Of a DNA stretch of 36,054 bases, positions 3,019 through 32,343 are shown one piece after another. Made by a program: the position numbers and the translations under genes. A model generated the notes under the pieces. That model was given only the letters and a program-made list of their open reading frames with translations. It was not told the DNA's origin and did not search any database. The stretch covers positions 1 through 36,054 of the forward strand of contig JAADHL010000360.1 of the NCBI GenBank assembly GCA_013151875.1. The letters are read 5' to 3'. Position 1 is the first letter of the stretch. The number at the start of each line of letters is the position of its first letter. Source of the stretch: Deltaproteobacteria bacterium (GTDB taxonomy: Bacteria; Myxococcota_A; UBA9042; DTJE01).

Positions 3019-4917
3019 CTAATGCAACGGATGATCAGCGCACACGGCCGGGTCGAAGTGCCCTTCGCGCACGAACAAATACCCCGTGGACAGAATGGGC
3101 GTCGTGCTTGGGGGAGGAGGCGCGGTCGCATCATCGGTCTTGGGGTAACCGAATCCGTCCATGCCTCCCATGACCAGGACCAGGCCCGGGTCGAGAGGCA
3201 GTGCCAGGGCCCCCAGCCTTGAACGCGAGTCCTCCAGCACTCCATCCTCGACCAGTCCGGAACCTTTCCCATCCACCGAAAAAAGCGCCAGGGTCCGGGG
3301 AAAGCAGAACGAACCCCACACCACTCCGCATCCCGGCGTCCCGGGCTCTTCGTTGAAATTTCTGTATCCACCGGCCATGACCATTTCGCCGTCTCCCACG
3401 GATACGATGGATGCCATGGACCTCACCGCCCACTGCCGCGGCTCATCCAGGGACACGGCGGTCGCCGAGTCAGGGTCATAGTGACCGCTGCCGTCGGCAT
3501 CCAGTTGCAGCAACCATCCGGTCCGCTTTTCCGGGTCTGGATTGGTGAAACTGAAAGTGGAGTCGTCCAGAGGATTTCCGCCCATGATCAGCAGGGTGGC
3601 GGCATCCCCAGTGTCGGACAGCACCGCCATGGAAGGATAGGCGGTCGGCGAGACATTCGGAGGCGGCCCCCCTGTTCCCAGTTCATGCGCCGTCAGGGCC
3701 CCGGAGGTATTCATAAACACCATTTCAGAAGCGGCCGGCTTGTCTCCAGTCCAGCCCCCGACCAGCACCAGGTCGCCGGTCGAAAGGAAAACGGCCCCAG
3801 AAGCAAAGCGAGGTGACGTCAGACTACCTTCCAGCACATGAACGGTTCCGTCCAGCAAGGCACTGGCGTCGGTCTCGATGAACACCACCTTGTCGGCGGG
3901 CTTGCCGTCGGTCGGGTTCCGGCCGCCGGCCAGGGCGACCCATCCGCGATCCCTGCTCACGGCCAGGGTGGCCTGAACCCCGGCCGTGGCGGTCTTGACG
4001 CCCGTGGAGGACCCGGCATTCAGGTCCAGCACGTCCACCGTGAATTCCACGTCATCAGCGCCGTCCAACGCCGCCACGTCTCCAGGGAAGCCCTGGGGGG
4101 CCAGAACCGCGGACCTGACCCCGCCAATCGCCAGGAGCATTCCCTGGTCGCCAGGCGGTTCAACCATGACGTGCATGGCGCGAGGCTCATGCAGAGCGTT
4201 TCTCAGGCCCTCTGGTCCGAAAGTTCCGATGAAAATTCCGGTACGGGGATCGAATTGCCACAACCGCGAACCGGCGGTCAGAGTGTCCCCTGTGGGTTTT
4301 GGGTTCCACTGATCGAAACCGCCGCTGACAAAGACGCGTCCATCCTGCGCGACCGTCCCAGCCGCGAAGGCCGAACTCCCGTTTTTGAGGAATTCGTCCC
4401 CGCCGAACTGAGGCGCCAGCGGACTCTGGTTCCAGCCGCCCACGCAAGACAGGGCTCCTGCCCGCTTCATGAACACAATCGGCGCGGATTTACGGGACTC
4501 CAGCACCTCGAATGCGCGACTTTTTCCACCCCAAGTGGCGCGGGGTTTCGGACCGGAGCTGCACCCAGTGACATCCAGAACGTAGCGGCCTGGAGGCACG
4601 CCGGTCATCAGGGCCTCTCCAGGGGACTCAAGTCCAACGTCGCTGAACACCAGGGCGGATTTCTCGACTCCGGCCGTGTCCAGGAGCCGCGCCACAATCC
4701 AATCCACGTCATCAGGGAGTCTGCCGGTGCTCAAGGGCGGATTCTCGCAACCCGCAGAGACGCCGTTCGCGAACACCAGCCCTGAGGTTTCGGATGAATC
4801 GAGCGTGGCCGCCCTTCCGCAACCAAGCAGCCCGACCAACGCGGCAAGGAAAGCAAACAGTCTTGGGACCTTGGTTTTCGGTCGGCGGGTGCTTTCGGGT
4901 TCCAATGAAACCCTCAT
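3019..4917 (-). CDS. Kelch-type beta-propeller lipoprotein (paralog 1)
   Basis: Signal peptide plus lipobox (LVGLLGC). There are about 7 repeats of hydrophobic-x-GG blades (VSGGFDQW, AIGGVRS, LAGGRNP, LVGGWTG, IMGGNP, MAGGYRN, VMGGMDG). The start is 1 nt from the stop of the upstream paralog. Confidence 0.7.
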   Translation of the reverse strand: MRVSLEPESTRRPKTKVPRLFAFLAALVGLLGCGRAATLDSSETSGLVFANGVSAGCENPPLSTGRLPDDVDWIVARLLDTAGVEKSALVFSDVGLESPGEALMTGVPPGRYVLDVTGCSSGPKPRATWGGKSRAFEVLESRKSAPIVFMKRAGALSCVGGWNQSPLAPQFGGDEFLKNGSSAFAAGTVAQDGRVFVSGGFDQWNPKPTGDTLTAGSRLWQFDPRTGIFIGTFGPEGLRNALHEPRAMHVMVEPPGDQGMLLAIGGVRSAVLAPQGFPGDVAALDGADDVEFTVDVLDLNAGSSTGVKTATAGVQATLAVSRDRGWVALAGGRNPTDGKPADKVVFIETDASALLDGTVHVLEGSLTSPRFASGAVFLSTGDLVLVGGWTGDKPAASEMVFMNTSGALTAHELGTGGPPPNVSPTAYPSMAVLSDTGDAATLLIMGGNPLDDSTFSFTNPDPEKRTGWLLQLDADGSGHYDPDSATAVSLDEPRQWAVRSMASIVSVGDGEMVMAGGYRNFNEEPGTPGCGVVWGSFCFPRTLALFSVDGKGSGLVEDGVLEDSRSRLGALALPLDPGLVLVMGGMDGFGYPKTDDATAPPPPSTTPILSTGYLFVREGHFDPAVCADHPLH

Positions 4918-4918
4918 C

Positions 4919-6571
4919 TCAATCCGGATTGTAGATGGGTGCGGTGGTCACCGACATCGAGTTCTGGGAAAAGCCGCCAGCGAGGAACACCCTCCTGGTG
5001 GCGTCAAAGACCGCCATGTGCCCTGCCCTCGCAGGCGAAAGATCGGGAGTCAGTCCCGCTACCGAGTCGATCACGTACTTGCACCCGGTCTGATTCACCA
5101 TGTCGTCGCACTCGAGGTTTTCGATGATCAGTTCGGTGGAGGGAATGGGCAGGCCACCTGTTCCCAGCCCACCGGCGATTACAATCGTGTTGTAGTCGAT
5201 AAGGGTGGATGTGTGGGCACCTCGCGCCGTCTTGAGGAACATGACCTCGCCGTCGTTGAAGCCCTTGATTCCCTCGCGGAAGACGTCAACCCGTGAGGAA
5301 GGTTGCGTATGCCCTGTATCCGTAAAACCACCGATAACATAGACTATTCCCTGCTGCGGCACATGGACCGCGCTCAACATGGTCCTGCCGCCTCCGGGGA
5401 GTTTGGTCGCCGCCGCAAGGTCCGGCTCCACATTGTAGCCGCCCACGGTAAATGCCTCCACGTCCGACACGACTCCGCTGGGGTTTTCCCCGCCGAACAG
5501 GATGAATGCGTCAACGCCCGGATTGGCGCCGGTCCTGCCGTAGGTGGACATGTGCACCATGGTATGGTTGTACCGTGTCGTCACCATCTCACCATAGGCA
5601 ACCGTCCCGGTATCCAGTATGTACATGTTCCAAAAAGAACCGGCCTGAGGGATGTTGGACAGCCCGCCGGCAAGGAAAATGACGTCCGGATTCGTTCCGG
5701 CCAGGCCAGCGGTGAACAGGGCGCGGCCCGCGCCTCCCGAAAGCCCTTGAGGGCTCTGCCTGAAGACCCCCGACTCCGGATCGAATACCTCTATAGAATC
5801 CGTAATGGAAGCCGGTCCCTGAGCAACCTGAGTGTATCCGCCCAGGATTACGACCCTGCCGTCCGAAATCTTCACCGCCTGGTGGAACGCCCTCGGGATG
5901 GTCATGGTGCCGACCGCGGTGAAGGTACCATGGGCGGGGTCGTACACCTCCCCGTCCGGGAACACCACGTCCAGGTCCTCGGCACGAGTCCACGACGTGG
6001 ACCCTGTCTTGATCCTGGCCCCACCGAGGATCAATATCCTGCCGTCGTCCAGAACGGTCATCGTCGCGCCAATCCTCTCGCCCAGTACCGGGGCGGTAGG
6101 TACCGGAGGATTGGCGGTGTTCATCGGTGAAGACAGGGAATTCCTGGGGCTCACGAAAACGTCGATTGTCCTGGCCTGGTCGTTGTGCTTTACGGTCAAC
6201 GGCACCGACCGACCGCGCGCGATGATGTCGCCAGCGACCTTGTCGTCGCAGACGTTGCTGCAGACCTCAACGGTGACCTGACGGCCGTAGCCCTCGGGAA
6301 TGTCGGGGAGGGCCGCCTGGCCGGAATTGTAATCGACCACCGTGTCCAGGGTCCCGTTGATCCCGGTCCCACTGACCGAAAAGCGCACTTTTTTTGCCAG
6401 GGAGACATCGAACGGATTCTGGTTGGGACCCGCCAGGGTCGTCCCTGTCACTGGGTGCACCTTGACGAGCAGCAGTTCCGGCGAGCTGGAACCCCCGCCG
6501 CAGGCCATGAAGGCCCAGGCGACAAGGGCCGACGCGAATACCCGGATTTTTCCGTTCCATTGGAACTTCAT
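4919..6571 (-). CDS. Kelch-type beta-propeller lipoprotein (paralog 2)
   Basis: Start chosen at ATG 6571 (MKFQWNGKIRVFASALVAWAFMACGGG, lipobox) with GGAGG 8 nt upstream. Repeated blades are ILGGAR, ILGGYT, LAGGLS, LFGGEN, IGGFTD, IAGGLG and LAGGFS. Confidence 0.7.
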   Translation of the reverse strand: MKFQWNGKIRVFASALVAWAFMACGGGSSSPELLLVKVHPVTGTTLAGPNQNPFDVSLAKKVRFSVSGTGINGTLDTVVDYNSGQAALPDIPEGYGRQVTVEVCSNVCDDKVAGDIIARGRSVPLTVKHNDQARTIDVFVSPRNSLSSPMNTANPPVPTAPVLGERIGATMTVLDDGRILILGGARIKTGSTSWTRAEDLDVVFPDGEVYDPAHGTFTAVGTMTIPRAFHQAVKISDGRVVILGGYTQVAQGPASITDSIEVFDPESGVFRQSPQGLSGGAGRALFTAGLAGTNPDVIFLAGGLSNIPQAGSFWNMYILDTGTVAYGEMVTTRYNHTMVHMSTYGRTGANPGVDAFILFGGENPSGVVSDVEAFTVGGYNVEPDLAAATKLPGGGRTMLSAVHVPQQGIVYVIGGFTDTGHTQPSSRVDVFREGIKGFNDGEVMFLKTARGAHTSTLIDYNTIVIAGGLGTGGLPIPSTELIIENLECDDMVNQTGCKYVIDSVAGLTPDLSPARAGHMAVFDATRRVFLAGGFSQNSMSVTTAPIYNPD

Positions 6572-6587
6572 CGCAACAACCTCCTGC

Positions 6588-8162
6588 TCACCATGTAGCC
6601 CGCGCGCCGAACGTCTGTTCACCGCCACCTCCGCCGCCGCACTTGCCGGCGCCACAGACGGCGCCCACGACGGTGCCGGTGACCACTACCCCGACGACGG
6701 TCCACAGCCACCATTCCTTGTAAATGGGCCTGGAAGGTGACTCGGAGGGCCATTCGTTCATCGGGAAGTCCTCCGGGATCTCGTCGAAGCCGCCCGTGGC
6801 CTGGGCCGTGGGCTGAACGGCCGCCACCGGGGCCGCCGCGGGCTTCTGGGTGGGAGAAGATGCCGGAGCGGGCGCGGGCGCTGGTGCCGGCGGCGTCGCG
6901 GCAACGGGTTTTTTCTCGGGTCGCTGGGTCGGGACCAGGGCGTAAATAGCCGGCCTTTTCGTCACGCGCCTGTCGGCCGGGAAGGTGGAAAGGGAGTCGG
7001 CCAGCCTTGATTCGAGGTCAAGGAGGGCAATCTGGAGATTGCTGAGGTCGGTGTCGATGACCGCGGGCTCGATGCCGGCCAACCTGCCTGATTTGCCGTC
7101 AAAGAGGAAAAGGCCCAGGTGGAAGGCGCCGTCCGAACGGGCCAGATATGACAATACAATGTATTCAGCGCCGGCCTTTTTCATGGCAATGCGGGCGTCG
7201 CGGGCGAAGTTTCCCGTAAAGTCTCCCGACTTGGCGTATTCGGTCAAGGGCCTTGTCTTGACCTTTGCCACCACGGGCCGGGCCGGTTTGGCCGACTTCC
7301 TGGCGACGTTCAGATTCAGGCGCAGTGAAGCGGTCCGTCCGGGCGACCGCGTATTGACAAACCTTCCGGCTGGAGGCAGACCCTCGGCCACCACGCGGAC
7401 GAAATGGCGTCCCCTCGGCAGGCCGGTAACGGTCTGGCTGCCCGTACCGACAAGGCGCCCATCCACGTAAACCGACGCGCCTTCCACGTCGACCGTAACG
7501 GTCAAGTCGCCACCCTTTGCAATCCTTTTCCTGCGCCTCTCCAGCTTCCTGATGAACTTCGGATTGAAAGCCTTGTCCTGGAGGCTGATGTCCGGACGCA
7601 TGGTCAGAAGCCTCTTGAGCGCGGCCCTGCCCTCTTCGTAGTAGCCGCCGGCCGTGAACCCGACTGCCAGCCACAGATAGGTATCGACGTACAGGTCAAA
7701 GTCCTCGAGGTCCTTGAGGTTCCGCCGGTACAGTTTCTCGGCGCGCATCAGACGGCCAAGGCCCGTTTCCAGGCGTTTTTTCTTCACAGCGGCCTTGCCC
7801 GATTCGGCCAGCTTGCGCGCCTTCTCCAAACGCGGATTGGTTTTTACCGGCTCGGGCGCTGGTTCGGCCGGCTTTTCTTCCAGCGCCGGTCGGGCGGCGG
7901 GGGTCTGCAGCACCTTCAGTTTGATCTTAGGGTCTATCTCGGCCAGCGCCCTGAAATATTCCTCCACCCTGGACGGGACTCCCTCGGGTACGTACTCGGA
8001 TCGTTGAACCGGCACGAACAAAACCACGTGCCCGGTATCAACCTTGTCCGTCCTGACCGTCCTGGCGCACAGCGGAGTGGGAAAAGCCGCCATGGACATC
8101 AGAAATGCGCATAGCACCAGAAAGACCATGGCCTCGTTCAATCGCTTCATGCGGGCCAGCAT
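6588..8162 (-). CDS. PEGA-domain envelope protein with N-terminal signal peptide, Pro/Ala-rich linker and C-terminal TM anchor
   Basis: PEGA-like segment VTVDVEGASVYVDGRLVGTGSQTVTGLPRGRHFVRVVAEG. The PAPAPAPAPA linker is followed by WWLWTVVGVVVTGTVVGAVCGAG. Start set at ATG 8162 (MLARMKRLNEAMVFLV...) because GGAGG lies 8 nt upstream. The ORF-track start at 8186 lacks an SD. Confidence 0.65.
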   Translation of the reverse strand: MLARMKRLNEAMVFLVLCAFLMSMAAFPTPLCARTVRTDKVDTGHVVLFVPVQRSEYVPEGVPSRVEEYFRALAEIDPKIKLKVLQTPAARPALEEKPAEPAPEPVKTNPRLEKARKLAESGKAAVKKKRLETGLGRLMRAEKLYRRNLKDLEDFDLYVDTYLWLAVGFTAGGYYEEGRAALKRLLTMRPDISLQDKAFNPKFIRKLERRRKRIAKGGDLTVTVDVEGASVYVDGRLVGTGSQTVTGLPRGRHFVRVVAEGLPPAGRFVNTRSPGRTASLRLNLNVARKSAKPARPVVAKVKTRPLTEYAKSGDFTGNFARDARIAMKKAGAEYIVLSYLARSDGAFHLGLFLFDGKSGRLAGIEPAVIDTDLSNLQIALLDLESRLADSLSTFPADRRVTKRPAIYALVPTQRPEKKPVAATPPAPAPAPAPASSPTQKPAAAPVAAVQPTAQATGGFDEIPEDFPMNEWPSESPSRPIYKEWWLWTVVGVVVTGTVVGAVCGAGKCGGGGGGEQTFGARATW

Positions 8163-8307
8163 ATCGGGAACCTCCGCATTATCCATAACACCGCGGCCAT
8201 CTTTCCGGGACCGCCGATCCTTTAATGGCGCAGCGCGGCAGAATCTATCACCTTGGACATGACTCAGTCAACCTCGCCCGTCAACTCCCGAATCGGCAAA
8301 AAAGCTC

Positions 8308-8354: not shown

Positions 8355-8426
8355 AGGCGCGTAGCTCAGTGGGAGAGCGCTACCTTGACACGGTAGATGT
8401 CGGCGGTTCAATCCCGCCCGTGCCTA
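8355..8426 (+). tRNA. tRNA-Val (anticodon GAC)
   Basis: Hand-folded cloverleaf:
- Acceptor AGGCGCG/CGTGCCT, with one G-U pair.
- U8 and A9, then D arm GCTC-AGTGGGA-GAGC.
- Anticodon arm CTACC-TTGACAC-GGTAG, with GAC at positions 34-36.
- Variable loop ATGTC and T arm GGCGG-TTCAATC-CCGCC.
- Discriminator A.
The 3' CCA is not fully encoded; the genome reads CCG. Confidence 0.9.
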
Positions 8427-8491
8427 CCGGCGCGAAGGACGGGCGCCCGCCGGGCGATCCTGTCGTACGCAGTCCCTTGCGAGAGAAATAC

Positions 8492-9049
8492 GTGGTCGCA
8501 GACAACCGGGAAGTCAGGACCAACAATAGGATCAGGGCTCGAGACGTGAGACTGATTGATCACAAAGGCGTCCAGATTGGAATCGTCTCGCTGTCGCAGG
8601 CGCTGGAGATGGCGGACAACGTCGGTCTGGACCTCGTTGAGGTGGCGGGACAGGCCAGGCCGCCCGTATGCCGGATCATGGACTTCGGCAAGTTCAAGTA
8701 CCAGCGCAAAAAGAGGCAGGCGGAGGCCAAGAAGCGTCAGGTGACCATTCAGCTCAAAGAGGTGAAAATCCGTTACAAGACGGATGATCACGACCTGGAA
8801 ACCAAGATGCGCAGGGCAACCGAATTCCTGAACGAGGGACACAAGGTCAAGTTCATGATGTTCTTCAAGGGAAGGGAGATCCAGTTCACCGCCCTTGGCC
8901 AGCAGACCATGGAAAAGATAGGTGCCAAGTTGATGGACGTGGCCGTCCAGGAACGCCCCCCCCGCATGGAGGGAAGGGTTCTTACAATGTATCTGGCGTC
9001 AAAGGGCGGCAAGAAGGAGGAAGGCGAAAGTGCCGAAAATAAAGACTAA
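8492..9049 (+). CDS. infC: Translation initiation factor IF-3
   Basis: ...NNRIRARDVRLIDHKGVQIGIVSLSQALEMADNVGLDLVEV...PPVCRIMDFGKFKYQ... matches the IF-3 N and C domains. The ORF-track start at 8369 lies inside the tRNA. The first plausible start after the tRNA is GTG 8492 (GAGAG 6 nt upstream), with TTG 8477 as an alternative. Confidence 0.85.
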   Translation: MVADNREVRTNNRIRARDVRLIDHKGVQIGIVSLSQALEMADNVGLDLVEVAGQARPPVCRIMDFGKFKYQRKKRQAEAKKRQVTIQLKEVKIRYKTDDHDLETKMRRATEFLNEGHKVKFMMFFKGREIQFTALGQQTMEKIGAKLMDVAVQERPPRMEGRVLTMYLASKGGKKEEGESAENKD

Positions 9050-9227
9050 CAGGGCTGCGGCAAAGCGGTTCGGCAGGACCGGCGGCGGCTCCCTGCGCAG
9101 GTCCAAGGCCTACAAGGGCCACCTGCAGGAGCACAAGGGCAAGAAACAAAAGCGGAACCTGAGGCAGACCACTCTGGTATCCAAAGCTGATGAAAAGCGC
9201 ATGAATCGGCTGCTGCCGAACATGTGA
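9030..9227 (+). CDS. rpmI: 50S ribosomal protein L35
   Basis: MPKIKTNRAAAKRF... The GTG start at 9030 has GGAGG 9 nt upstream and overlaps the last 20 nt of infC. Confidence 0.9.
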   Translation: MPKIKTNRAAAKRFGRTGGGSLRRSKAYKGHLQEHKGKKQKRNLRQTTLVSKADEKRMNRLLPNM

Positions 9228-9242
9228 CGGAGGACCTTAGCG

Positions 9243-9596
9243 ATGGCACGGGTAAAAAGGGGTTTCAAGAGACGGCGCAGGCACAACCGGCTGCTGAAGC
9301 TGGCTTCCGGTTTTCGCGAACGCCGCAGGACGGCCTATCGACGGGCGGTGGAGAATGTGCACAGGGCCCTGAGGTTCGCATATGTGCACAGACGCCAGAA
9401 CAAGCGCAACTATCGTCGACTGTGGATTGCACGCATCAATGCCGCGTGCAGGATGAACGACACCAAATATTCGGATCTGATCCATGCCCTGAACCAAGCG
9501 GGCGCGATCATCGATCGCAAGGTGCTGGCGGATATCGCGGTTCATGACCCGGAAGGTTTCACGCGGATTGTGCAGACCACTTTGAGTGGGTCTTAA
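9243..9596 (+). CDS. rplT: 50S ribosomal protein L20
   Basis: MARVKRGFKRRRRHNRLLKLASGFRERR...RRLWIARINAACR. This is the canonical position after rpmI. Confidence 0.95.
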   Translation: MARVKRGFKRRRRHNRLLKLASGFRERRRTAYRRAVENVHRALRFAYVHRRQNKRNYRRLWIARINAACRMNDTKYSDLIHALNQAGAIIDRKVLADIAVHDPEGFTRIVQTTLSGS

Positions 9597-9636
9597 GACC
9601 GGTTGTTGGGGGATTATCCACGGAGGGCTCCTAAAG

Positions 9637-9915
9637 ATGACAAAGACTGACATCGTCGAAGGCGTTTACGAACGACTTGGAGGCTTTTCCAAGAAGGAAG
9701 CCGCTGCCATCGTGGAAACGATACTCGACGTCATGAAAGATGCCCTCACTGATGGCGAGAAGGTCAAGATTTCCAGTTTCGGCACCTTCACCGTCCGGGC
9801 AAAAAAGAAACGACGCGGAAGGAATCCAAAAACAGGCAAGACCCTTGAGATTTCGGCCCGCAAGGTCCTGACGTTCAAACCCAGTCAGGTCCTGAAATCG
9901 CTTCTGAACTCGTAG
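9637..9915 (+). CDS. ihfA: Integration host factor alpha-like (HU/IHF family DNA-binding protein)
   Basis: MTKTDIVEGVYERL...FGTFTVRAKKKRRGRNPKTGKTLEISARKVLTFKPSQVLK. ATG 9637 has GGAGG 10 nt upstream. The N-terminal extension from 9586 in the ORF track is rejected. Confidence 0.75.
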   Translation: MTKTDIVEGVYERLGGFSKKEAAAIVETILDVMKDALTDGEKVKISSFGTFTVRAKKKRRGRNPKTGKTLEISARKVLTFKPSQVLKSLLNS

Positions 9916-18893: not shown

Positions 18894-20564
18894 ATGGACA
18901 GAGTGGTCGAATGCGTGCCCAATTTCTCGGAAGGCCGGGACCGGCGCATCATTGACGCCATCACCTCATCAATGAAATCACGCGGCGCAACCGTGCTGGA
19001 CGTCGACATGGGCGCGGCGGCAAACAGAACCGTCGTAACCATGGCGGGTGAGCCTGAAGCGGTCGAAGCCGCTGCTTTCGAGGCCATCAGGACCGCCGCG
19101 GACCTGATCGACATGGCGTCCCACTCGGGCGAACACCCGCGCATGGGCGCGACCGACGTCTGCCCGTTCATTCCGGTTCGTGGAGTGGGCATGGATGACT
19201 GCGTCGCCATGGCGAGGCGGCTCGGCGAGCGCGTAGGAAGGGAACTCGGCATACCGGTCTATCTGTACGGGGCCGCGGCCGCCACTCCTTCCCGAAACAG
19301 CCTGGCAGCCATCAGACATGGGGAATACGAGGGCCTGGCGGCCAAACTCCTGGATCCCGCCTGGGCTCCTGACTTCGGCGAGTCCGGATTCAATCCGAAG
19401 AGCGGGGCCACCGTGATTGGGGCACGGGAGTTCCTGATCGCCTATAACATCAACCTGAATACCCGGGACCGTCAAAAGGCCATGAGGATAGCGGTGCGTC
19501 TGAGGACCCAGGGGGGCCTGGCCCGCTCTCCCGACGGCGCGCCTCTGAGGGACCCGACCGGAAAGACCTTTCGGATTCCAGGTCTGTTTCGGGACGTCCG
19601 GGCGGTCGGCTGGGTCATCGAGGAGTACGGAATCGCCCAGATTTCGATCAATGTCCTCAACCACCTGGCCACTCCGCTGCACGTCATCTATGAAGAGGCG
19701 AAGCGTCTGGCGGCGCAGGTGGGGGTCTCGATCACCGGCAGCGAGGTCGTGGGCCTGCTTCCTGAAGCCGCCCTGCTGAACGCGGGCCGTTTCTATCTGA
19801 ACCGTCAGGGGCTCTCGTCGGGCGTCCCAAGGAAGGAACTGGTTCACGTGGCCGTCAGGTCGTTGGACGTCAAGCCGTTCGACCCGGATGCGAAGGTCAT
19901 CGAATATCGCCTGGACGCCGACGCGCAATCATTGACGTCGGTGACCGTGGATGATTTCGTCGATTCGGTGAGCATGGATTCACCGGTGCCTGGAGGAGGA
20001 TCGGTGGCGGCGCTGTGCGGCGCGATGGGCGCGGCCCTGGCCGGCATGGCGGCCAACCTTACCGTCAGACGTCGCGAGTTGTCGGACACCCATGCCTCGA
20101 TGAAGGAGATCGCGGTCGAGGCGCAGGATTTGAAGGATGCGATGGTGCGTCTTGTGACCGAGGATTCCGAATCATTTGAAGATGTCATGTCCGCCTTCAG
20201 GCTCAGGGCCTCCAATGATGACGAAAAAAAGGCCAAGGAACTGGCTCTGGAATCCGCTAACACCAGGGCTGCACAGGCGCCGTTGAAGACGTTGGAACAC
20301 TGCCTGCGGTTGATTGACCTTGCCGGCGAGGTGACCAGACGGGGTTACGAAAACTGCCTGTCCGACGCGGGAGTGGCCACAGCCGCGGCCCTCGCGGGCG
20401 CTCAGGGCGCTGCCTTGAACGTCCTCATCAACGCCCGGAATCTGAAAGACGCAAATGAAGCGGATCGATTTCGTTCCCAGGCCCTGGAAGGCGCTTCACG
20501 GGCAAGGGAAAAGGCGCGTGAAGTCCTGGACGAGCTTACGGCGAGGCTGGCCGACGGTCCGTAA
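18894..20564 (+). CDS. Fused glutamate formimidoyltransferase / formimidoyl-THF cyclodeaminase (FTCD-like)
   Basis: N-terminal VECVPNFSEGRD is the formiminotransferase signature. C-terminal PVPGGGSVAALCGAMGAALAGMAANLT is the cyclodeaminase signature. AGGAGG lies 8 nt upstream of ATG 18894. Confidence 0.85.
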   Translation: MDRVVECVPNFSEGRDRRIIDAITSSMKSRGATVLDVDMGAAANRTVVTMAGEPEAVEAAAFEAIRTAADLIDMASHSGEHPRMGATDVCPFIPVRGVGMDDCVAMARRLGERVGRELGIPVYLYGAAAATPSRNSLAAIRHGEYEGLAAKLLDPAWAPDFGESGFNPKSGATVIGAREFLIAYNINLNTRDRQKAMRIAVRLRTQGGLARSPDGAPLRDPTGKTFRIPGLFRDVRAVGWVIEEYGIAQISINVLNHLATPLHVIYEEAKRLAAQVGVSITGSEVVGLLPEAALLNAGRFYLNRQGLSSGVPRKELVHVAVRSLDVKPFDPDAKVIEYRLDADAQSLTSVTVDDFVDSVSMDSPVPGGGSVAALCGAMGAALAGMAANLTVRRRELSDTHASMKEIAVEAQDLKDAMVRLVTEDSESFEDVMSAFRLRASNDDEKKAKELALESANTRAAQAPLKTLEHCLRLIDLAGEVTRRGYENCLSDAGVATAAALAGAQGAALNVLINARNLKDANEADRFRSQALEGASRAREKAREVLDELTARLADGP

Positions 20565-20940
20565 TCGCTGGGGCCTTTGCCCGCCGGCGACGTGTCGTCC
20601 GGATCGGGCGGCGCTTGGCCGTTGACAAGACCTCACGCACCAGCTTCGTGTAGCCTTTTGGTTTCACGGACTTCAGAAAATTCACGATATCCACCCTGGC
20701 GTACATCGGAATCACCCACTGTTTTCTGTTTTTTTCCTTTCGATAAATCTTGCCGTGAAAAATCTTGAATGTCTTGAGGGCGGCCCTCACCTCTCGACGC
20801 TCGGCCGGATCACCGACCACGAGGCGCAGTTCCACCCCACCATGGCGACCCGTATCGGGATCATCGGACCTTATCCGCAGGCAGCCGTTCCTTTCGTAGC
20901 ATTCTCTCAGGACGTCCTGTGGCCGGATACGAACCGCCAT
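20536..20940 (-). CDS. Hypothetical small basic protein (134 aa), last gene of the spike module
   Basis: ATG 20940 is 3 nt after the M64 stop. The Arg/Lys-rich tail is AKRRPIRTTRRRRAKAP. The DNA is locally AT-richer than its neighbours. The 3' end overlaps the convergent FTCD-like gene by 29 nt. No confident family assignment. Confidence 0.45.
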   Translation of the reverse strand: MAVRIRPQDVLRECYERNGCLRIRSDDPDTGRHGGVELRLVVGDPAERREVRAALKTFKIFHGKIYRKEKNRKQWVIPMYARVDIVNFLKSVKPKGYTKLVREVLSTAKRRPIRTTRRRRAKAPAITDRRPASP

Positions 20941-20943
20941 CCC

Positions 20944-22299
20944 TCAACCTCCAGGGCTGGTCAACAGGCGGATCATGTCCTCCACCGCCGCCTTGCAGAC
21001 CGGACAGAACCCCTTGTTTCCCTTTGAAAACATCTTGCAATCCATGGCGGGGCGGTAGAGCCCTTTCGCGGAATAACCCGCGCCCTCGAACGCACCGACC
21101 ACGTTTCCATAACGCGCCCGATCGGGAGGGGTCGGGATCGGGGTCGAGTCATCGACAAGCGCGCGCCATTTCAGGGGATGGTCTTTCAACAAGGCGGTAA
21201 GGTTCGGTTCCCAAGGCTCCACGCCCCTCGGATAGAAATCCGAATAGGCCACCGAGGAGGAATAGTATTCGTCGCCCAGACCCGCGAAACCGTGGCCGAA
21301 TTCGTGAGTCATGATGTACTCGTCGAATTCGTTGTCGGACGCGAAAACCGAATACAGACCAAAGATGCCGCCACCTCCATAACGGGAAGTATTGACCATT
21401 ACGATCAAGGTGTCGTAAGGCGCCAGGGCCGCCAGGTCACGCAAGTCCCTCGACCTGGTGGATGTAAGATATCTGGCCGAGCCGAAGGTATCGAAGGTCG
21501 TGGACAACCCGGTGTCCGTGAAGATACCGCGTCTGGGTTCATCGGGTCCTGAACCGGCCGAGGGGGCTCGGATGGCCCTGACCGCGAAGGATTGGCGCAT
21601 CTCTTTGAAAGGACTGGTCTGAAAGAGTACCCGGAGGAAGCGTCGGGCATCCTTGTTGAACTTCGCGGACTCGCCTTCGGTGTAGCCGTCGCCCAGGATC
21701 AGCACGTCCACCACGGATTCCGGGGGGCCGTTTACTTCCAGATTCAACACCTCGACGCCATCAAAACGACGGCCGCGATCCACTTCTCGCGAGCCTGGAT
21801 CGATTGTCACCGAATACACGTCCTCGAACCGCCCATCCTTTTTCCTGGACGCAATCACCACCCGCACCTGCCGCCTGGGCATCGGAAAACGCACCGCCTC
21901 CTCGATGGCCCTGACGCGGCCCGACGCGGCCTCCGCGGTCGTCTGCCATTCACCGAACAGGCTTGAATATCCGTATCGATAGATCAATCTTCCCAAGGGC
22001 ATGGCGTACACGCTCACCCGGTATTTGCCGTAATCGGGGAAGTCCGTCAGGCGCCCGTACCGCCCGCCCCAGAAGGGCTCCTCGCGTACCTGATCCAGCG
22101 AGTATCGCTCGGAATCGGCCGTACCGGAATGGATCAGATCGAGCCTCATTCCCCTGGGCACGAAGCTGTCGGTGAACGCTGACACGGCAACGGATCTACG
22201 CTCGCCGTCGTTCAGGGCATCGGCATCGGCGGTGACGGCGGCCGTAACGACCGAAAGCGCCAGCAGATGAATCACAGCGACCCGGGAACGACGATTCAT
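20944..22299 (-). CDS. Peptidase M64 family zinc metallopeptidase with Sec-type signal peptide
   Basis: THEFGHGFAGLGDEYY (HExxH plus GLGDEY) is preceded by VMVNTSRYGGGGIFG. The N-terminus is MNRRSRVAVIHLLALSVVTAAVTADA. The ATG overlaps the DUF2169 stop (ATGA at 22296-22299). Confidence 0.8.
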   Translation of the reverse strand: MNRRSRVAVIHLLALSVVTAAVTADADALNDGERRSVAVSAFTDSFVPRGMRLDLIHSGTADSERYSLDQVREEPFWGGRYGRLTDFPDYGKYRVSVYAMPLGRLIYRYGYSSLFGEWQTTAEAASGRVRAIEEAVRFPMPRRQVRVVIASRKKDGRFEDVYSVTIDPGSREVDRGRRFDGVEVLNLEVNGPPESVVDVLILGDGYTEGESAKFNKDARRFLRVLFQTSPFKEMRQSFAVRAIRAPSAGSGPDEPRRGIFTDTGLSTTFDTFGSARYLTSTRSRDLRDLAALAPYDTLIVMVNTSRYGGGGIFGLYSVFASDNEFDEYIMTHEFGHGFAGLGDEYYSSSVAYSDFYPRGVEPWEPNLTALLKDHPLKWRALVDDSTPIPTPPDRARYGNVVGAFEGAGYSAKGLYRPAMDCKMFSKGNKGFCPVCKAAVEDMIRLLTSPGG

Positions 22300-23492
22300 C
22301 CGATGCCCTCTTCCACGAGGACCTTCTCATAGGCTCTTACGTCGATGTCCTCGACCTCCATCGGCAAGGCGGAAAACTCGTCGCCTTCATTCAGTTGGGA
22401 CAGTACGCACTTCCCCCTGAACGTAAGGACCAGTTTCATGTCGTCCACCAGAAAAACCACGGTGTCCAGTACGGTCGGCAGGGTCAGGCGTCCGGCTCCC
22501 GTTTCGAGTCTGAGCAGGGGACGCACTCCGGGCAGGTTGAAAGTCAGCATGCCCCCGGGAGTCATGTTCCTGAAGGCCAGCGCTTCGTCCCCCGCCAGGA
22601 TGGGAAACGTCATGCCGGGCGCGGCGGACTGATGGAATCGTGGGTCCATCACAGGCGGCTCGAACCCCTCCAGCATGGCAATCGCTTCCGCGTCCTTTTC
22701 CGGGTCCAGGTCCGCGGCCTGCTCCCGTATCCGCTCCCTCGCCTCGTCAATCTGAAAGGGCATGACACCGGCAAAAGCCACTCGCGGATACCACGCGGCG
22801 GCGTAGACACCGAAGCCCACGGGCAGGGGCAGGTCCTCCGGCGCCCCGATCCGCCTGACCACGGATTCGGGGGTCAACAACGCACCAGGGTCCTCGATCT
22901 GCGGCAGTTCGAGTCCGTCCAGCCCAGCCCGTGAGTTCTGCACGCAGTAACCCATGCCGAGCGGATTGGAGGGACATGGAATCTCGATGACGTCTTCCCC
23001 TCCCGGCAGTTCGTACCTTGCCGTTCCCCCGTAGGCGCGCGTGAAATTCAAGGGCACGCTGGCAACCGGTTCCGGTTCGGAAAAGACAGGCGTTCTGAAA
23101 ATCGTTTCCTTCTTTGTCTGTCGGGACGGCTTGCGCCAGCTCGCATGCCGGGGTCCGAACACCCTCAGGACGCGGCGGGCCTTCCCAACCGTCACCTCCA
23201 CGTCGAACGACGGTACCGGCCGCCCCTTCGGCGCATAGGCCGTCCCGTGCACCACAACGTCGGTCATGGCCTTTGCCAAAACGGAGTCGGAATCGAACAT
23301 TATCGGCGATGCGGCGGGATCGTCGCCCTCGATCGGCAGAGCGGCAAACCTGACGGGCTCCTTGTCTTCGGCGGGGACGAGGATGCGGTCATCACCCAGG
23401 ACATATGTCGCCTTGGCGACCACCACACCTGCCTGATTTCCCTCTGGATCCGCCAAGGTGAAACGTTCGATTTCGTAGTTTCCGGCTTGCAT
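22296..23492 (-). CDS. DUF2169-domain protein (VgrG-associated adaptor family)
   Basis: Pattern typical of DUF2169 as recalled: N-terminal ...GVVVAKATYVL..., TDVVVHGTAYAPKGRPV, VLRVFGPR, NFTRAYGG, SNPLGMGY, PVGFGVYAAAWYPR and LDTVVFLVDDMKLVLTFRG. It sits directly downstream of a spike gene. Confidence 0.75.
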   Translation of the reverse strand: MQAGNYEIERFTLADPEGNQAGVVVAKATYVLGDDRILVPAEDKEPVRFAALPIEGDDPAASPIMFDSDSVLAKAMTDVVVHGTAYAPKGRPVPSFDVEVTVGKARRVLRVFGPRHASWRKPSRQTKKETIFRTPVFSEPEPVASVPLNFTRAYGGTARYELPGGEDVIEIPCPSNPLGMGYCVQNSRAGLDGLELPQIEDPGALLTPESVVRRIGAPEDLPLPVGFGVYAAAWYPRVAFAGVMPFQIDEARERIREQAADLDPEKDAEAIAMLEGFEPPVMDPRFHQSAAPGMTFPILAGDEALAFRNMTPGGMLTFNLPGVRPLLRLETGAGRLTLPTVLDTVVFLVDDMKLVLTFRGKCVLSQLNEGDEFSALPMEVEDIDVRAYEKVLVEEGIG

Positions 23493-23518
23493 CCATCGCC
23501 GCCGTAGATCCGTGGGAT

Positions 23519-24319
23519 CTAGTTGATCTTGACCGTCGCGCCCTTGATGGTCATTCCGCCGCTCGAATTGATGTCCATGGTGCTGCCGGCCTTTATCTCA
23601 GCGGAGCTTCCGGCCTGTATCTTGCTGGAAGAGCTGGATTTCGTCTCCAGCGTCTTGCATTCCAGCAGGATCTTTCCATTCGGCGCCGAAACCGTGACAT
23701 CCCCGTTCTTGCTTTCAAGCTTCACGTGGTTGTTCGTGCTGTCGATGGTGAGGAGGTTTTCCTGTTTCCCGTCGGAAATCTGGATCATCAACGCGCCGTC
23801 GGACTCGTCCATGACGATGAAATGCCCAGGCCTGGACTTGTGGCCGTCCGCGGCGGTGCCCGCCTCGCACCTGGTCTGTATGATGATCCGGCCCTCACCT
23901 TCAGTGTCCTGGAACTGGATGACGTGTCCCGAGCGACTGAAGAGGGTCCTGAAATCGTTGCTGCCGCCCTGACTCTGGTTGTCATGGATCGCCTTGTCCA
24001 CCGGGCTCCACAGCGAACCGATGACAAAGGGGCGTCTGATGTCACCGTGCTCGAACGCGACCAGGACCTCGTCATCTACCTCCGGAAGCCAGAAAGCCCC
24101 CCGGTCGGGCCCCGCCATGAAGGTGGCAATCCTGGCCCAGTTCGACGGAAAGTCCTCACGATCGGGGGCGTCGGTATAGGTGGAACTGGACTCCTGCACC
24201 CAGGGAAACTTGACCTTCACGCGATAGAGCCCTTCCGGGTCGTTGTTGTCAATCACGATCCCGATGACCACGCCGTATATCCGGTTCACCTGCCGTTCGG
24301 CGGAAATGGGGCTGTCCAT
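23519..24319 (-). CDS. gp5/gpV-type OB-fold spike protein (VgrG-like C-terminal module only, 266 aa)
   Basis: IYGVVIGIVIDNNDPEGLYRVKVKFPW...SNWARIATFMAGPDRGAFWLPEVDDEVLVAFEHGDIRRPFVIGSLWS matches the phage baseplate-V / VgrG OB-fold. The C-terminus is Ser/Gly-rich and beta-helix-like (KIQAGSSAEIKAGSTMDINSSGGMTIKGATVKIN). ATG 24319 has GGAGG 7 nt upstream. No gp27-like N-terminal domain. Confidence 0.8.
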   Translation of the reverse strand: MDSPISAERQVNRIYGVVIGIVIDNNDPEGLYRVKVKFPWVQESSSTYTDAPDREDFPSNWARIATFMAGPDRGAFWLPEVDDEVLVAFEHGDIRRPFVIGSLWSPVDKAIHDNQSQGGSNDFRTLFSRSGHVIQFQDTEGEGRIIIQTRCEAGTAADGHKSRPGHFIVMDESDGALMIQISDGKQENLLTIDSTNNHVKLESKNGDVTVSAPNGKILLECKTLETKSSSSSKIQAGSSAEIKAGSTMDINSSGGMTIKGATVKIN

Positions 24320-24349
24320 CCCTGGCCCTCCGTTTAGCACAGGAACTCG

Positions 24350-24378
24350 ATGATACATTCACGTGGTGCGGCGGTCCA
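24350..24378 (-). promoter_or_regulatory. Candidate internal promoter for the spike module
   Basis: On the minus strand: TGGACC (24378-24373), 17-nt spacer, TATCAT (24355-24350). It lies in the 62-nt gap between the lipid-kinase stop and the spike ATG. Confidence 0.3.
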
Positions 24379-31004: not shown

Positions 31005-31134
31005 TTTTCATCAATTGATGCGACCTTTTTCGCCGGGCGTTTTTGTAGACAAAGATCCATAACTATGGTAGGTAATGCCGTCTCTGGAACGCATTGAATT
31101 GTCTGTATTTTTCAGGATGGATGGAGGAGAAGCC

Positions 31135-32343
31135 ATGTCGATCAGGATGAAAATGATGATTGGGTCCCTCTCGCTGCTGGCCCTGGGCCTCGGCTGCGAG
31201 AAGGATACCCAGAGTTTCGTAAGCTGGGCCATCGGGCTGCAGATACAGGGCGAGGGCACCTTTGACGAGGTAACCAAGTCCTACAAGCAGATCCTTGGCG
31301 ACCCGAACGCGGCCGAACAGAAGGGGACCATAAACAACGGGTCCTTCGCGGGCGAGTCGTCGGGAACCCTCGAGGTCCACAAGACCGGCAAGTTCACCGA
31401 GCAGTGGACGGTCGTGGGCAAGACCTACTCGAACAATCCACTGCTTCCGGGCCGTGACACGTTCGGAGAGGTGCCTGTCTATCTGGTCGAACAGCAAAAA
31501 GTCGAGCACGACGTCAGCACCTATACCAAGGAAGTGACCAACGAAGAGTCGCAACCCAACGTGATGCACAGCTACCAGACCGAAAACACCGGTTTCGCCG
31601 ATAAGGCGACCAGCGCCTCCACCTACGGCCTGGCCGGCGACGAGTATCTCGTCAAGATGACCGACCTCGGCATGCTGTGGGACCCGAACTGGGAACTGTG
31701 GGAAATGTTCTGGAAGGGCGACGATATCAACAACAACACGGCCCTGGAAAACGGCGCAACGTGGGCGGGCCTCAAGGCCGGCGTGGAGTACCTGTGCCAG
31801 GCCAATCCCTCGGTGGGCGACGTGTGGGTGAACCCTGATGGGACAACAATCTATCGGGATATCGCCAACGAGTCCGTCCCGGTGGGCGCGGGCGCGCACA
31901 GCGCGGCCAAGCTGGAACTGCGCGAGGTGACCAACGTCAATACCATGGATATCGCCAACCGCTGCCTGGTAATCTATGACGACGCCGACAGCGCGTGGAC
32001 CCTGGCAGGCAACCCGGTGGAGGGCTTTGATCATGCCGACACGTTCCCGACCGTGCACCTCGACCCTGGCTGTGAAGGCAGCTTCGAGCACAGCAAGATC
32101 GGCCACGAATGGTGGTACAGGAACGTACTCGTAAAGTCAGAGACGACCAGGCAGTTCGTGACCGTGACGGACTACGGATGGGAATGGCTGGAAGCGGAAG
32201 GCGCCAACATCGTTCGCAAGACGTCCAAGGTCAAGACGGCGGCCGCGGCCAATGCCCGGGCCTTCGTGGAGTTCACCTATACGACCCGCACCGAAACCTA
32301 CGCCAACACCGGATGGTCCGAAGCACCGTTCGACGCCCTCTGA
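31135..32343 (+). CDS. Hypothetical lipoprotein, Trp/Thr/Asn/Glu-rich, no recognisable domain
   Basis: MSIRMKMMIGSLSLLALGLGCEKD (lipobox). GGAGGAG lies 5 nt upstream of ATG 31135. Third-position GC is high like its neighbours. Confidence 0.55.
   Translation: MSIRMKMMIGSLSLLALGLGCEKDTQSFVSWAIGLQIQGEGTFDEVTKSYKQILGDPNAAEQKGTINNGSFAGESSGTLEVHKTGKFTEQWTVVGKTYSNNPLLPGRDTFGEVPVYLVEQQKVEHDVSTYTKEVTNEESQPNVMHSYQTENTGFADKATSASTYGLAGDEYLVKMTDLGMLWDPNWELWEMFWKGDDINNNTALENGATWAGLKAGVEYLCQANPSVGDVWVNPDGTTIYRDIANESVPVGAGAHSAAKLELREVTNVNTMDIANRCLVIYDDADSAWTLAGNPVEGFDHADTFPTVHLDPGCEGSFEHSKIGHEWWYRNVLVKSETTRQFVTVTDYGWEWLEAEGANIVRKTSKVKTAAAANARAFVEFTYTTRTETYANTGWSEAPFDAL

Follow-up and report, generated by a model that had tools for sequence, protein, structure and literature searches.

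Positions 1 to 36,054 of contig JAADHL010000360.1 (assembly GCA_013151875.1), from an uncultured bacterium labelled Deltaproteobacteria (GTDB Myxococcota_A) and referred to here over their full length of 36,054 nucleotides (nt) as the window, contain four tightly packed genes that form a vertically inherited chromosomal operon led by the gene of a hub-less spike. The genes behind it encode a DUF2169 protein, an M64 zinc metallopeptidase and a small basic protein. We propose that the ancestors of the spike were split spikes of extracellular contractile injection systems (eCIS) and that its link to the gp27/gpD hub gene was lost. The reading we favour, with confidence that is evenly balanced, is that the spike, presumably a trimer, and the DUF2169 protein would make up a spike-tip subassembly used by a contractile machine encoded elsewhere. 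The features of the locus are as follows.

24350..24378, minus strand: promoter-like element TGGACC-17-TATCAT, -10 hexamer at 24355-24350, from a consensus scan
24327..24331, minus strand: Shine-Dalgarno (SD) motif GGAGG, 7 nt before the spike ATG, from sequence reading
23519..24319, minus strand: hub-less central spike, 266 amino acids (aa), gp5/gpV-type oligonucleotide/oligosaccharide-binding (OB) fold and C-terminal beta-prism, from the Phage_base_V match
22296..23492, minus strand: DUF2169 / TvpA-type spike-tip chaperone, 398 aa, single domain, from Pfam and AlphaFold2 (AF2)/Foldseek
20944..22299, minus strand: M64 zinc metallopeptidase, 451 aa, predicted Sec-type signal peptide, from the M64_N and Peptidase_M64 matches
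20536..20940, minus strand: basic protein, 134 aa, pI 11.3, predicted single LAGLIDADG-like domain and Arg/Lys-rich tail, from AF2/Foldseek

The sequence-only reading, an earlier interpretation made from the letters of the window and a list of its open reading frames (ORFs), had described four closely packed minus-strand genes, and the ORF list together with a reading of the sequence bears this out. A 26-nt spacer separates the spike stop codon (TAG, 23519-23521) from the DUF2169 ATG (23492), the DUF2169 and M64 genes share an ATGA stop/start overlap (22296-22299), a 3-nt gap (GGG) lies between the M64 stop and the ATG of the small ORF (20940), and the small ORF runs at its 3′ end 29 nt into the convergent FTCD gene. 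In the mechanical ORF list the spike starts at 24358 (279 aa). As had been suggested, we prefer the start at 24319 (266 aa): it has a GGAGG 7 nt before it and agrees with the ortholog lengths of 263-269 aa, whereas the longer ORF has no such support. A perfect 7-bp inverted repeat (TAGATCC-CAC-GGATCTA, 23505-23521) lies across the spike stop codon; it was considered as a conserved attenuator and rejected, and is probably fortuitous because it is absent from 11 orthologous spacers.

Profile hidden Markov models support all three earlier family assignments, with scores of 93.9 bits for the spike, 201.8 bits for DUF2169 and 270.2 bits for the M64 peptidase, all above cut-off. The spike match is to Phage_base_V (cut-off 23.8, E = 7.6e-27, residues 32-117 of the 279-aa ORF), and no Pfam match to Phage_GPD was found. 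A profile built from 51 orthologs aligns only to residues ~373-590 of the solved spikes that were compared (AlgoCIS 7AEF, the Anabaena thylakoid contractile injection system (tCIS) 7B5H, Pseudomonas aeruginosa VgrG1 4MTK, Pvc8 and Afp8). They cover the OB-fold and beta-prism; the window spike lacks the gp27/hub part, about 370 aa in length. Models of the VgrG/TssI family score below their cut-offs (TIGR03361, 50.5 versus 186.35; TIGR01646, 58.2 versus 121.8; VgrG_rel, 102.5 versus 275) and are matched over their C-terminal third only, which places the spike outside that family. At its C terminus the profile reaches the C-terminal end of 7B5H and 9RCE and the prism of 7AEF, as for a prism with a blunt tip, and the blunt-tip motif MTIKGATVKIN is common to the window spike class and eCIS spikes. 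Relative to eCIS spikes, the orphan class is longer by an insertion of ~13 aa within the OB-fold and by ~40 residues ahead of the prism.

A search for spike homologs gave 3334 matches in two length classes, of ~212 aa and ~265 aa, the window spike belonging to the longer. Members of the ~212-aa class are about 43% identical and serve as the spikes of complete eCIS clusters, where they are encoded between a separate Phage_GPD hub gene and PAAR/gp25 genes (as at L013; loci are cited by number throughout). When one genome per species was scanned, 80 spike loci were recovered, and a locus was classed as eCIS-type when probes with eCIS proteins found at least three eCIS core genes in a neighbourhood of up to ±10 kb. 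All eCIS-type loci (62/62) come from outside the Myxococcota group, and in them the split spike (gpV-like, about 212 aa; for example, L013, L029, L030 and L035) always sits between the gpD hub and PAAR/gp25 in a complete cluster. The window spike is 35-46% identical to these split spikes over the full length and shares their OB-fold, beta-prism and tip (…MTIKGATVxIN). In contrast to them it is solitary, about 55 aa longer through two insertions and followed by DUF2169, which is not an eCIS component; no sheath, tube, gpD hub, gp25 or gpJ/gpI gene clusters with the spike in the window. Among the 48 orphan-type loci (window included, with some duplicates), no eCIS gene was found up to ±10 kb save at L053, a short contig from outside Myxococcota with two eCIS genes that is probably a piece of an eCIS cluster.

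Every spike match at ≥51% identity comes from a metagenome-assembled genome (MAG) labelled Myxococcota, Myxococcales or 'Deltaproteobacteria', with the exception of L022, whose record is labelled Enterobacteriaceae. That label looks like a mis-assignment, because the hflX gene of L022 is 95% identical to that of L011. At 45% identity stand L025 (Myxococcales) and L026, a 3-kb contig without eCIS genes from a MAG labelled Reyranella, and below 45% the matches are mainly from Methanosarcinales, cyanobacteria, Acidobacteriota, Bacillota and similar groups. Lower-identity orphans labelled Myxococcota or 'Deltaproteobacteria' were also recovered (L027, L031, L032, L042 and L077). We found nothing relevant on solitary Myxococcota spikes in the literature.

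The window itself encodes no sheath, tube, baseplate, gp27/GPD hub, PAAR, TssJLM or ClpV protein according to Pfam scans of its ~30 plausible ORFs and tblastn searches with 13 eCIS proteins and four PAAR types, in agreement with the sequence-only reading. The possibility of a concealed PAAR gene was rejected, as tblastn with the four PAAR types gave no match.

The second gene encodes a single-domain DUF2169 protein (201.8 bits versus a cut-off of 25, E = 2e-59) with about 33 orthologs at 45-63% identity. Its AF2 model is of high confidence (predicted local distance difference test (pLDDT) 94.6), and the only significant fold match that Foldseek found for it in the PDB is 8VTH, a DUF2169 crystal structure (E = 2.2e-22, TM 0.77). 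A disguised gp27/hub fold, which would have made the pair a split VgrG, was rejected since the model matches 8VTH only and nothing hub-like. Residues ~237-287 (window 22630-22780) form a confidently predicted three-helix insert of about 50 residues that seemingly expands the region of the dynamic client-binding loop of 8VTH, a correspondence drawn from the order of secondary structures only; the expanded loop might reflect a different client.

Published work gives this family a role at the spike tip of type VI secretion systems (T6SS). DUF2169 proteins are chaperones that keep PIPY(DUF4150)-VgrG tips secretion-competent (Sachar et al. 2025, PMC11883445). In the Tvp system (Monlezun et al. 2026, PMC13373197), a PAAR protein is placed first on TvpC, where TvpA (DUF2169) caps it. 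TvpC, a trimer of OB-fold and beta-prism without gp27 (DUF6484 or DUF3540), serves as a VgrG surrogate and is later replaced by VgrG. The window locus resembles the Tvp system (PMC13373197, PMC11883445) in that a gp27-less protein of OB-fold and beta-prism, the architecture of TvpC, is encoded beside a single-domain DUF2169 protein with the 8VTH fold, and in cousin loci the cone (PAAR) gene lies between spike and DUF2169. It differs in having no VgrG, PAAR/PIPY or T6SS gene in its neighbourhood, in a Phage_base_V spike whose nearest relatives are eCIS split spikes, and in its setting within housekeeping synteny of an uncultured Myxococcota-type lineage in which the spike also occurs alone. The cone of the cousin loci is a canonical PAAR_motif protein, whereas that of Tvp is DUF4150/PIPY.

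All four genes are real and functional, being under purifying selection as judged from ratios of nonsynonymous to synonymous substitution (dN/dS) of 0.05-0.10 for the spike, 0.07-0.15 for the small ORF, 0.15-0.19 for M64 and 0.18-0.25 for DUF2169, all of which are rough values because dS is saturated; the flanking FTCD and diacylglycerol kinase-like (DAGK) genes gave 0.10-0.14 and 0.13-0.19. The module had been credited with its own SD and a promoter-like element. As a consensus match, the site at 24378-24350 does not rise above chance (9/12 positions; 1 found versus 1.3 expected), but its -10 element and the SD are conserved. A -10 of the form TAT(C/T/G)AT, often with a preceding TG, is kept 35-45 nt upstream of the spike start in 13/16 orthologous loci, in otherwise unalignable sequence and whatever the upstream gene, and is followed by a GGAGG-type SD motif in nearly all spike orthologs. 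This conservation irrespective of the upstream gene indicates that the spike leads its own transcription unit. In the window, FAD-oxidase, CCG and DAGK genes lie directly upstream on the same strand.

Comparison with relatives shows which parts of the module are constant. Writing S for the spike, D for DUF2169, M for M64 and s for the small ORF, the full order S-D-M-s is present only in the window, L001/2 and L005/6. Other loci have S-D-s (L015, L095, L096, L109), S-D (L003/4/100 and L007/8/101) or S-s (L108, L014), and in the spacers of the last two a remnant of DUF2169 was looked for and none was found. M64 is separated from S-D by a FadL-like outer-membrane protein gene at L097, and S-D stands beside dsrAB-like genes at L102 and L105. 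Among more distant relatives, to which the loci in the rest of this list belong, an S-D pair with a 795-aa DUF2169 protein precedes hflX at L025. In eight loci the spike alone precedes hflX (L011, L012, L018, L019, L020, L022, L023, L024), and solitary spikes adjoin polysaccharide genes at L027, L031, L032 and L042. The order S-PAAR-D(713 aa)-X280, where X280 is a protein family described below, lies between moeA-like and asd-like genes at L017 and L021; partial versions are X280-S-PAAR (L026), D-X280 (L099, L106) and PAAR-D (L009). A metagenome scan with a narrow alignment gave 14 loci. The order of the spike-DUF2169 pair is kept in at least 14 distinct lineages with three kinds of flank (FTCD-, dsrAB- and hflX-adjacent). 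The spike is the only gene common to every spike-anchored locus. Judging from these gene orders, DUF2169 is a common companion that can be dispensed with, the content of the downstream slot varies, and M64 belongs to one small sub-clade only.

Several of these relatives have features of their own. In the hflX sister clade, the hub-less spike of ~265 aa is always immediately upstream of the GTPase gene hflX, while the other upstream neighbours differ; the arrangement spike-DUF2169-hflX may be the older one, because L025 holds a DUF2169 gene between spike and hflX. At L102:7766-10094 and L105:4492-6819 the pair, with a spike 70% identical to that of the window, lies directly upstream of dsrA/dsrB-like genes (recognized by eye from N-terminal sequences), which points to the module also being present in a probably sulfur-metabolising lineage of lower GC. 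X280 (~280 aa; L017:13338-14186, L021:13720-14619, L026:833-1672, L099:2106-2951, L106:~9085-9915) starts with MPAPQ…, is rich in Pro, Gly and Met and ends in …PTFAPPFVPVGPVV; it has no Pfam or PHROG match and no signal peptide. Five unrelated contexts place the family again and again beside spike, PAAR and/or DUF2169 genes, and it is a candidate for a cargo or a structural partner of orphan tip modules. A conserved, Cys-rich PAAR_motif protein of 106 aa (CPxxxHGCxxCxH … CCGPNTW … HCGG) pairs with DUF2169 (L017:10790-11110, L021:10794-11114, L009:9604-9924; also L026:2462-2779). According to a 2025 survey in the Journal of Biological Chemistry, DUF2169 is rarely found beside PAAR and usually beside DUF4150/PIPY; the protein of these four loci is a canonical PAAR. 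Finally, L010:7476-11185, in a MAG labelled Planctomycetes, encodes a 173-aa, weakly DUF3540-like protein ending in …RIRLN, a DUF2169 protein, a 269-aa protein of no recognized family and a second DUF2169 protein, amid glycosyltransferase genes. No T6SS gene lies within 10 kb of this further detached Tvp-like module.

The locus had been called an island, which does not hold, because its GC content (0.55-0.65) is that of its flanks (0.57-0.70), no integrase or tRNA adjoins the module, and the housekeeping synteny around the pair (DAGK … FTCD-UbiA-YjeF) is kept in relatives down to about 50% identity. FTCD-UbiA-YjeF lies downstream throughout the window clade, and the sole tRNA of the window (8355-8428) is 12 kb away. 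There is thus neither deviant composition nor patchy presence against conserved flanks. A prophage origin was rejected (PHROG matches are weak, with E about 1e-4, and tRNA and integrase are lacking), as was a role in anti-phage defence (no PADLOC match). As in the orphan vgrG-adaptor-effector islands of T6SS, a spike gene precedes an adaptor/chaperone gene and a slot of varying content, at a distance from the main machine genes. Unlike those islands, the locus has a spike without the gp27 half, and hence unable alone to cap an Hcp tube, and its downstream gene encodes a putatively Sec-exported enzyme without an immunity partner.

The M64 protein is a regular member of its family, with matches to M64_N (110.9 bits) and Peptidase_M64 (270.2 bits) and an HEFGH zinc motif at residue 332 that is intact and kept in M64 orthologs. 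Like the IgA protease of the Thomasclavelia ramosa type, it combines M64_N, Peptidase_M64, HEXXH and a secretory N terminus, and nothing about it is unusual save its position after DUF2169. The N terminus reads MNRRSR, VAVIHLLALSVVTAAVTA and DADA, that is, three Lys/Arg and no Asp/Glu and then a 12-mer with a Kyte-Doolittle hydropathy of 2.69. By this heuristic reading, a Sec-type N terminus (basic n-region, hydrophobic h-region) is present in 3/3 M64 orthologs, and no Sec-type signal was seen in the spike, DUF2169 or the small ORF. Among related loci, M64 is found only in the window, L001/2, L005/6 and L097, and is absent from most relatives, including the next-closest, L109 (spike 81% identical). 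The ATGA overlap with DUF2169, correctly reported for the window, is specific to it: 91-112 nt lie between the two genes in orthologs. At L097:5102-6622 a 506-aa FadL/OmpP1-like outer-membrane protein with a signal peptide (by eye) is encoded between DUF2169 and M64, an arrangement which suggests that M64 travels with envelope genes. The gene after M64 in the window is not of an immunity type, its product having a predicted LAGLIDADG-like fold and neither a signal peptide nor a transmembrane character.

For that product, the small ORF, no match above threshold was found in Pfam, NCBIfam, PHROG or PADLOC. Close homologs number only 5 in 5.8e9 proteins, and a profile search of 1.84e9 proteins recovered 58 representatives, nearly all of them stand-alone proteins of 87-162 aa. 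Its AF2 model, built from only 5 sequences, has a pLDDT of 78.9 with a core above 90, and all of the top 50 PDB fold matches by Foldseek (50/50) are LAGLIDADG meganucleases (probability 1.00, E = 6e-4 to 8e-3, TM about 0.45-0.54). The predicted alpha-beta-beta-alpha-beta-beta-alpha core is that of single-domain LAGLIDADG homing endonucleases of the I-CreI type. Several traits set the small ORF apart from these enzymes: no Pfam domain, LAGLIDADG included, was found in it or in nine distant relatives scanned, it has a basic tail, and it belongs to a tiny unannotated family. The helix-1 motif is YERNG, and across the family the residue before the helix-ending Gly, in a register assigned by eye, is Asn, Ser, His or Gly and never the catalytic Asp/Glu. 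A LAGLIDADG fold without this acidic residue makes the protein most likely DNA-binding and non-cleaving. It occurs with the spike in nine lineages, with or without M64 or DUF2169. Two other identities were considered and rejected: a PAAR/PIPY cone, to which its size and a 'VIPMY' string had pointed, in view of the LAGLIDADG-like alpha/beta fold, and an M64 immunity protein, because it is found without M64 and has no export signal.

Some 30 other ORFs of the window are ordinary cellular genes by Pfam scans. They include genes for phosphoglucomutase, YchF, Kelch and PEGA proteins, IF3, MerR, an AI-2E transporter, FAD synthetase, HEAT and AMIN proteins, YjeF, UbiA, FTCD, the DAG-kinase-like protein, the CCG/FAD-oxidase pair, an acyltransferase-hydrolase, DUF192, a TIG protein and a deoxynucleoside kinase. 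The IF3 ORF as listed mechanically (8369-9049) begins within the tRNA at 8355-8428, tRNA-Val(GAC); as the IF3_N domain starts only at residue 51 of this ORF, the true infC start must lie well downstream, unusual start codons being a known trait of infC. A possible cluster for surface or secreted proteins lies at 3019-8186, where three large genes follow one another on the minus strand and encode two beta-propeller proteins of Kelch repeats (632 and 578 aa) and one protein with a PEGA domain (532 aa). At 31063-32343, two long ORFs without a Pfam match overlap on opposite strands (347 aa minus, 422 aa plus). The plus-strand ORF is probably the real gene, because orthologous loci call a gene of ~408 aa opposite to the strand of the module.

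The sequence-only reading had left a choice between service to a contractile system encoded elsewhere and stand-alone use, and both are still plausible. How the pair might work is best considered against the TvpC-TvpA pre-complex. On the reading we favour, the spike trimer and DUF2169 would form or hold a spike-tip subassembly in the cytoplasm, a cone protein (PAAR/PIPY) would complete it, and the completed tip would pass to, or be fitted onto, a T6SS or eCIS whose genes lie elsewhere in the genome, much like the TvpC-TvpA pre-complex or an alternative split spike; here we infer complex formation, the hand-over and the existence of the distant machine. The variable downstream slot would hold M64 and the small LAGLIDADG-fold protein as passengers in the window. 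Cousin loci with fuller sets favour this reading, namely spike-PAAR-DUF2169-X280 (L017, L021) and PAAR-DUF2169 (L009). A number of results weigh against it. No PAAR/PIPY, VgrG or gpD hub gene is near any member of the window clade, DUF2169 being linked to PAAR only in those more distant relatives, whereas in nearly all published DUF2169 systems the cone gene adjoins DUF2169 (PMC11883445). The spike is also no member of the TvpC families, as the match to DUF6484 spans only 22 residues and stays below the cut-off (21.1 versus 27.6 bits) and DUF3540 has no match at E≤0.1, and of the TvpC context (tvpA, PAAR/DUF4150 and a T6SS vgrG) the window has only the adjacent DUF2169. Furthermore, DUF2169 is cleanly absent in two lineages and the spike stands alone beside hflX in at least eight loci, so the function of the spike does not strictly need DUF2169. 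These last observations agree with a rival account that we consider rather unlikely but credible, in which a domesticated hub-less spike, with or without DUF2169, has a cell-intrinsic or non-contractile role in genomes without a contractile injection system. The orphan-type loci are devoid of eCIS genes apart from L053, and the window clade lacks a cone protein. The spike, the only constant element, has its own conserved promoter and is more constrained than the neighbouring housekeeping genes; its adjacency to hflX or FTCD is stable over deep divergence, and the lineage-specific insertions in the OB-fold and before the prism are absent from eCIS spikes. Yet the PAAR-binding blunt tip is still shared with eCIS spikes, the PAAR protein and candidate cargo X280 of cousin loci only make sense for an injected tip, and no role of DUF2169 outside T6SS is known. 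Moreover, orphan spike/adaptor loci distant from the main cluster are commonplace in T6SS-positive bacteria. A broader form of the account, in which the whole Myxococcota-type clade would have domesticated a hub-less, eCIS-derived spike, often with DUF2169, to work without a sheath-tube machine, seems fairly improbable.

The sequence-only reading saw M64 as possible cargo. To this idea, here taken to mean that DUF2169 loads the peptidase as an effector onto the spike and that the small ORF encodes its partner or immunity protein, we attach little probability. Its appeal is plain: in the window M64 is joined to DUF2169 by the ATGA overlap and to the small ORF by a 3-nt gap, the four-gene order recurs in two further lineages (L001 and L005), and the slot downstream of spike/adaptor genes typically holds cargo genes. 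T6SS and eCIS cargo is, however, loaded in the cytoplasm, whereas all three M64 orthologs have a Sec-type signal peptide. In addition, the overlap is replaced by long spacers in orthologs, M64 is missing from the next-closest relative and from most lineages, and its partner at L097 is a FadL-like outer-membrane protein. The small ORF is found without M64 and has a cytoplasmic LAGLIDADG-like fold, unlike a periplasmic immunity protein, and the known client of DUF2169 is the PAAR/PIPY cone and not a peptidase. Nor would an M64 cargo be an undescribed class, as had been suggested, since bioinformatic work has already put forward a short protein with an M64 domain as an effector of the Salmonella pathogenicity island 6 (SPI-6) T6SS (PMC10469887); that protein, of 243 aa and with a transmembrane immunity partner, is unlike the window M64. 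Given the signal peptide in three orthologs, the patchy presence, the FadL-like partner, the ortholog spacers and the lack of an immunity-type neighbour, M64 is probably a Sec-exported passenger in the variable slot, a co-transcribed neighbour and not part of the spike system, which would act in the periplasm or outside the cell. The attractive idea of M64 as a spike-delivered cargo is thereby corrected as unsupported. Least probable of all, to the point that we give it almost no weight, is the view that an old eCIS cluster is decaying here, or that the genes came together by chance and serve no present function: although the spike is homologous to eCIS spikes and all other eCIS genes are missing at the locus, the ORFs are intact with dN/dS of 0.05-0.25 across lineages, promoter and SD are conserved, and the pair has been retained in its many lineages.

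The mechanism by which DUF2169 proteins work with gp27-less surrogate spikes dates only from 2025-2026 and was described solely within proteobacterial T6SS clusters. The window presents the same two-part logic in another phylum, with a spike derived, as we propose, from eCIS and not from VgrG, detached from both machine and cone gene and long under strong selection. If the machine is encoded elsewhere, the idea of Tvp-type pre-assembly would extend beyond canonical T6SS, and the locus would show that spike-tip modules can be housekeeping-like chromosomal fixtures. If there is no machine, the locus would represent a new use of a phage-derived spike, and a clade of stand-alone spikes would mean a new, non-contractile use of a membrane-puncturing beta-prism trimer and a place for DUF2169 outside type VI secretion.

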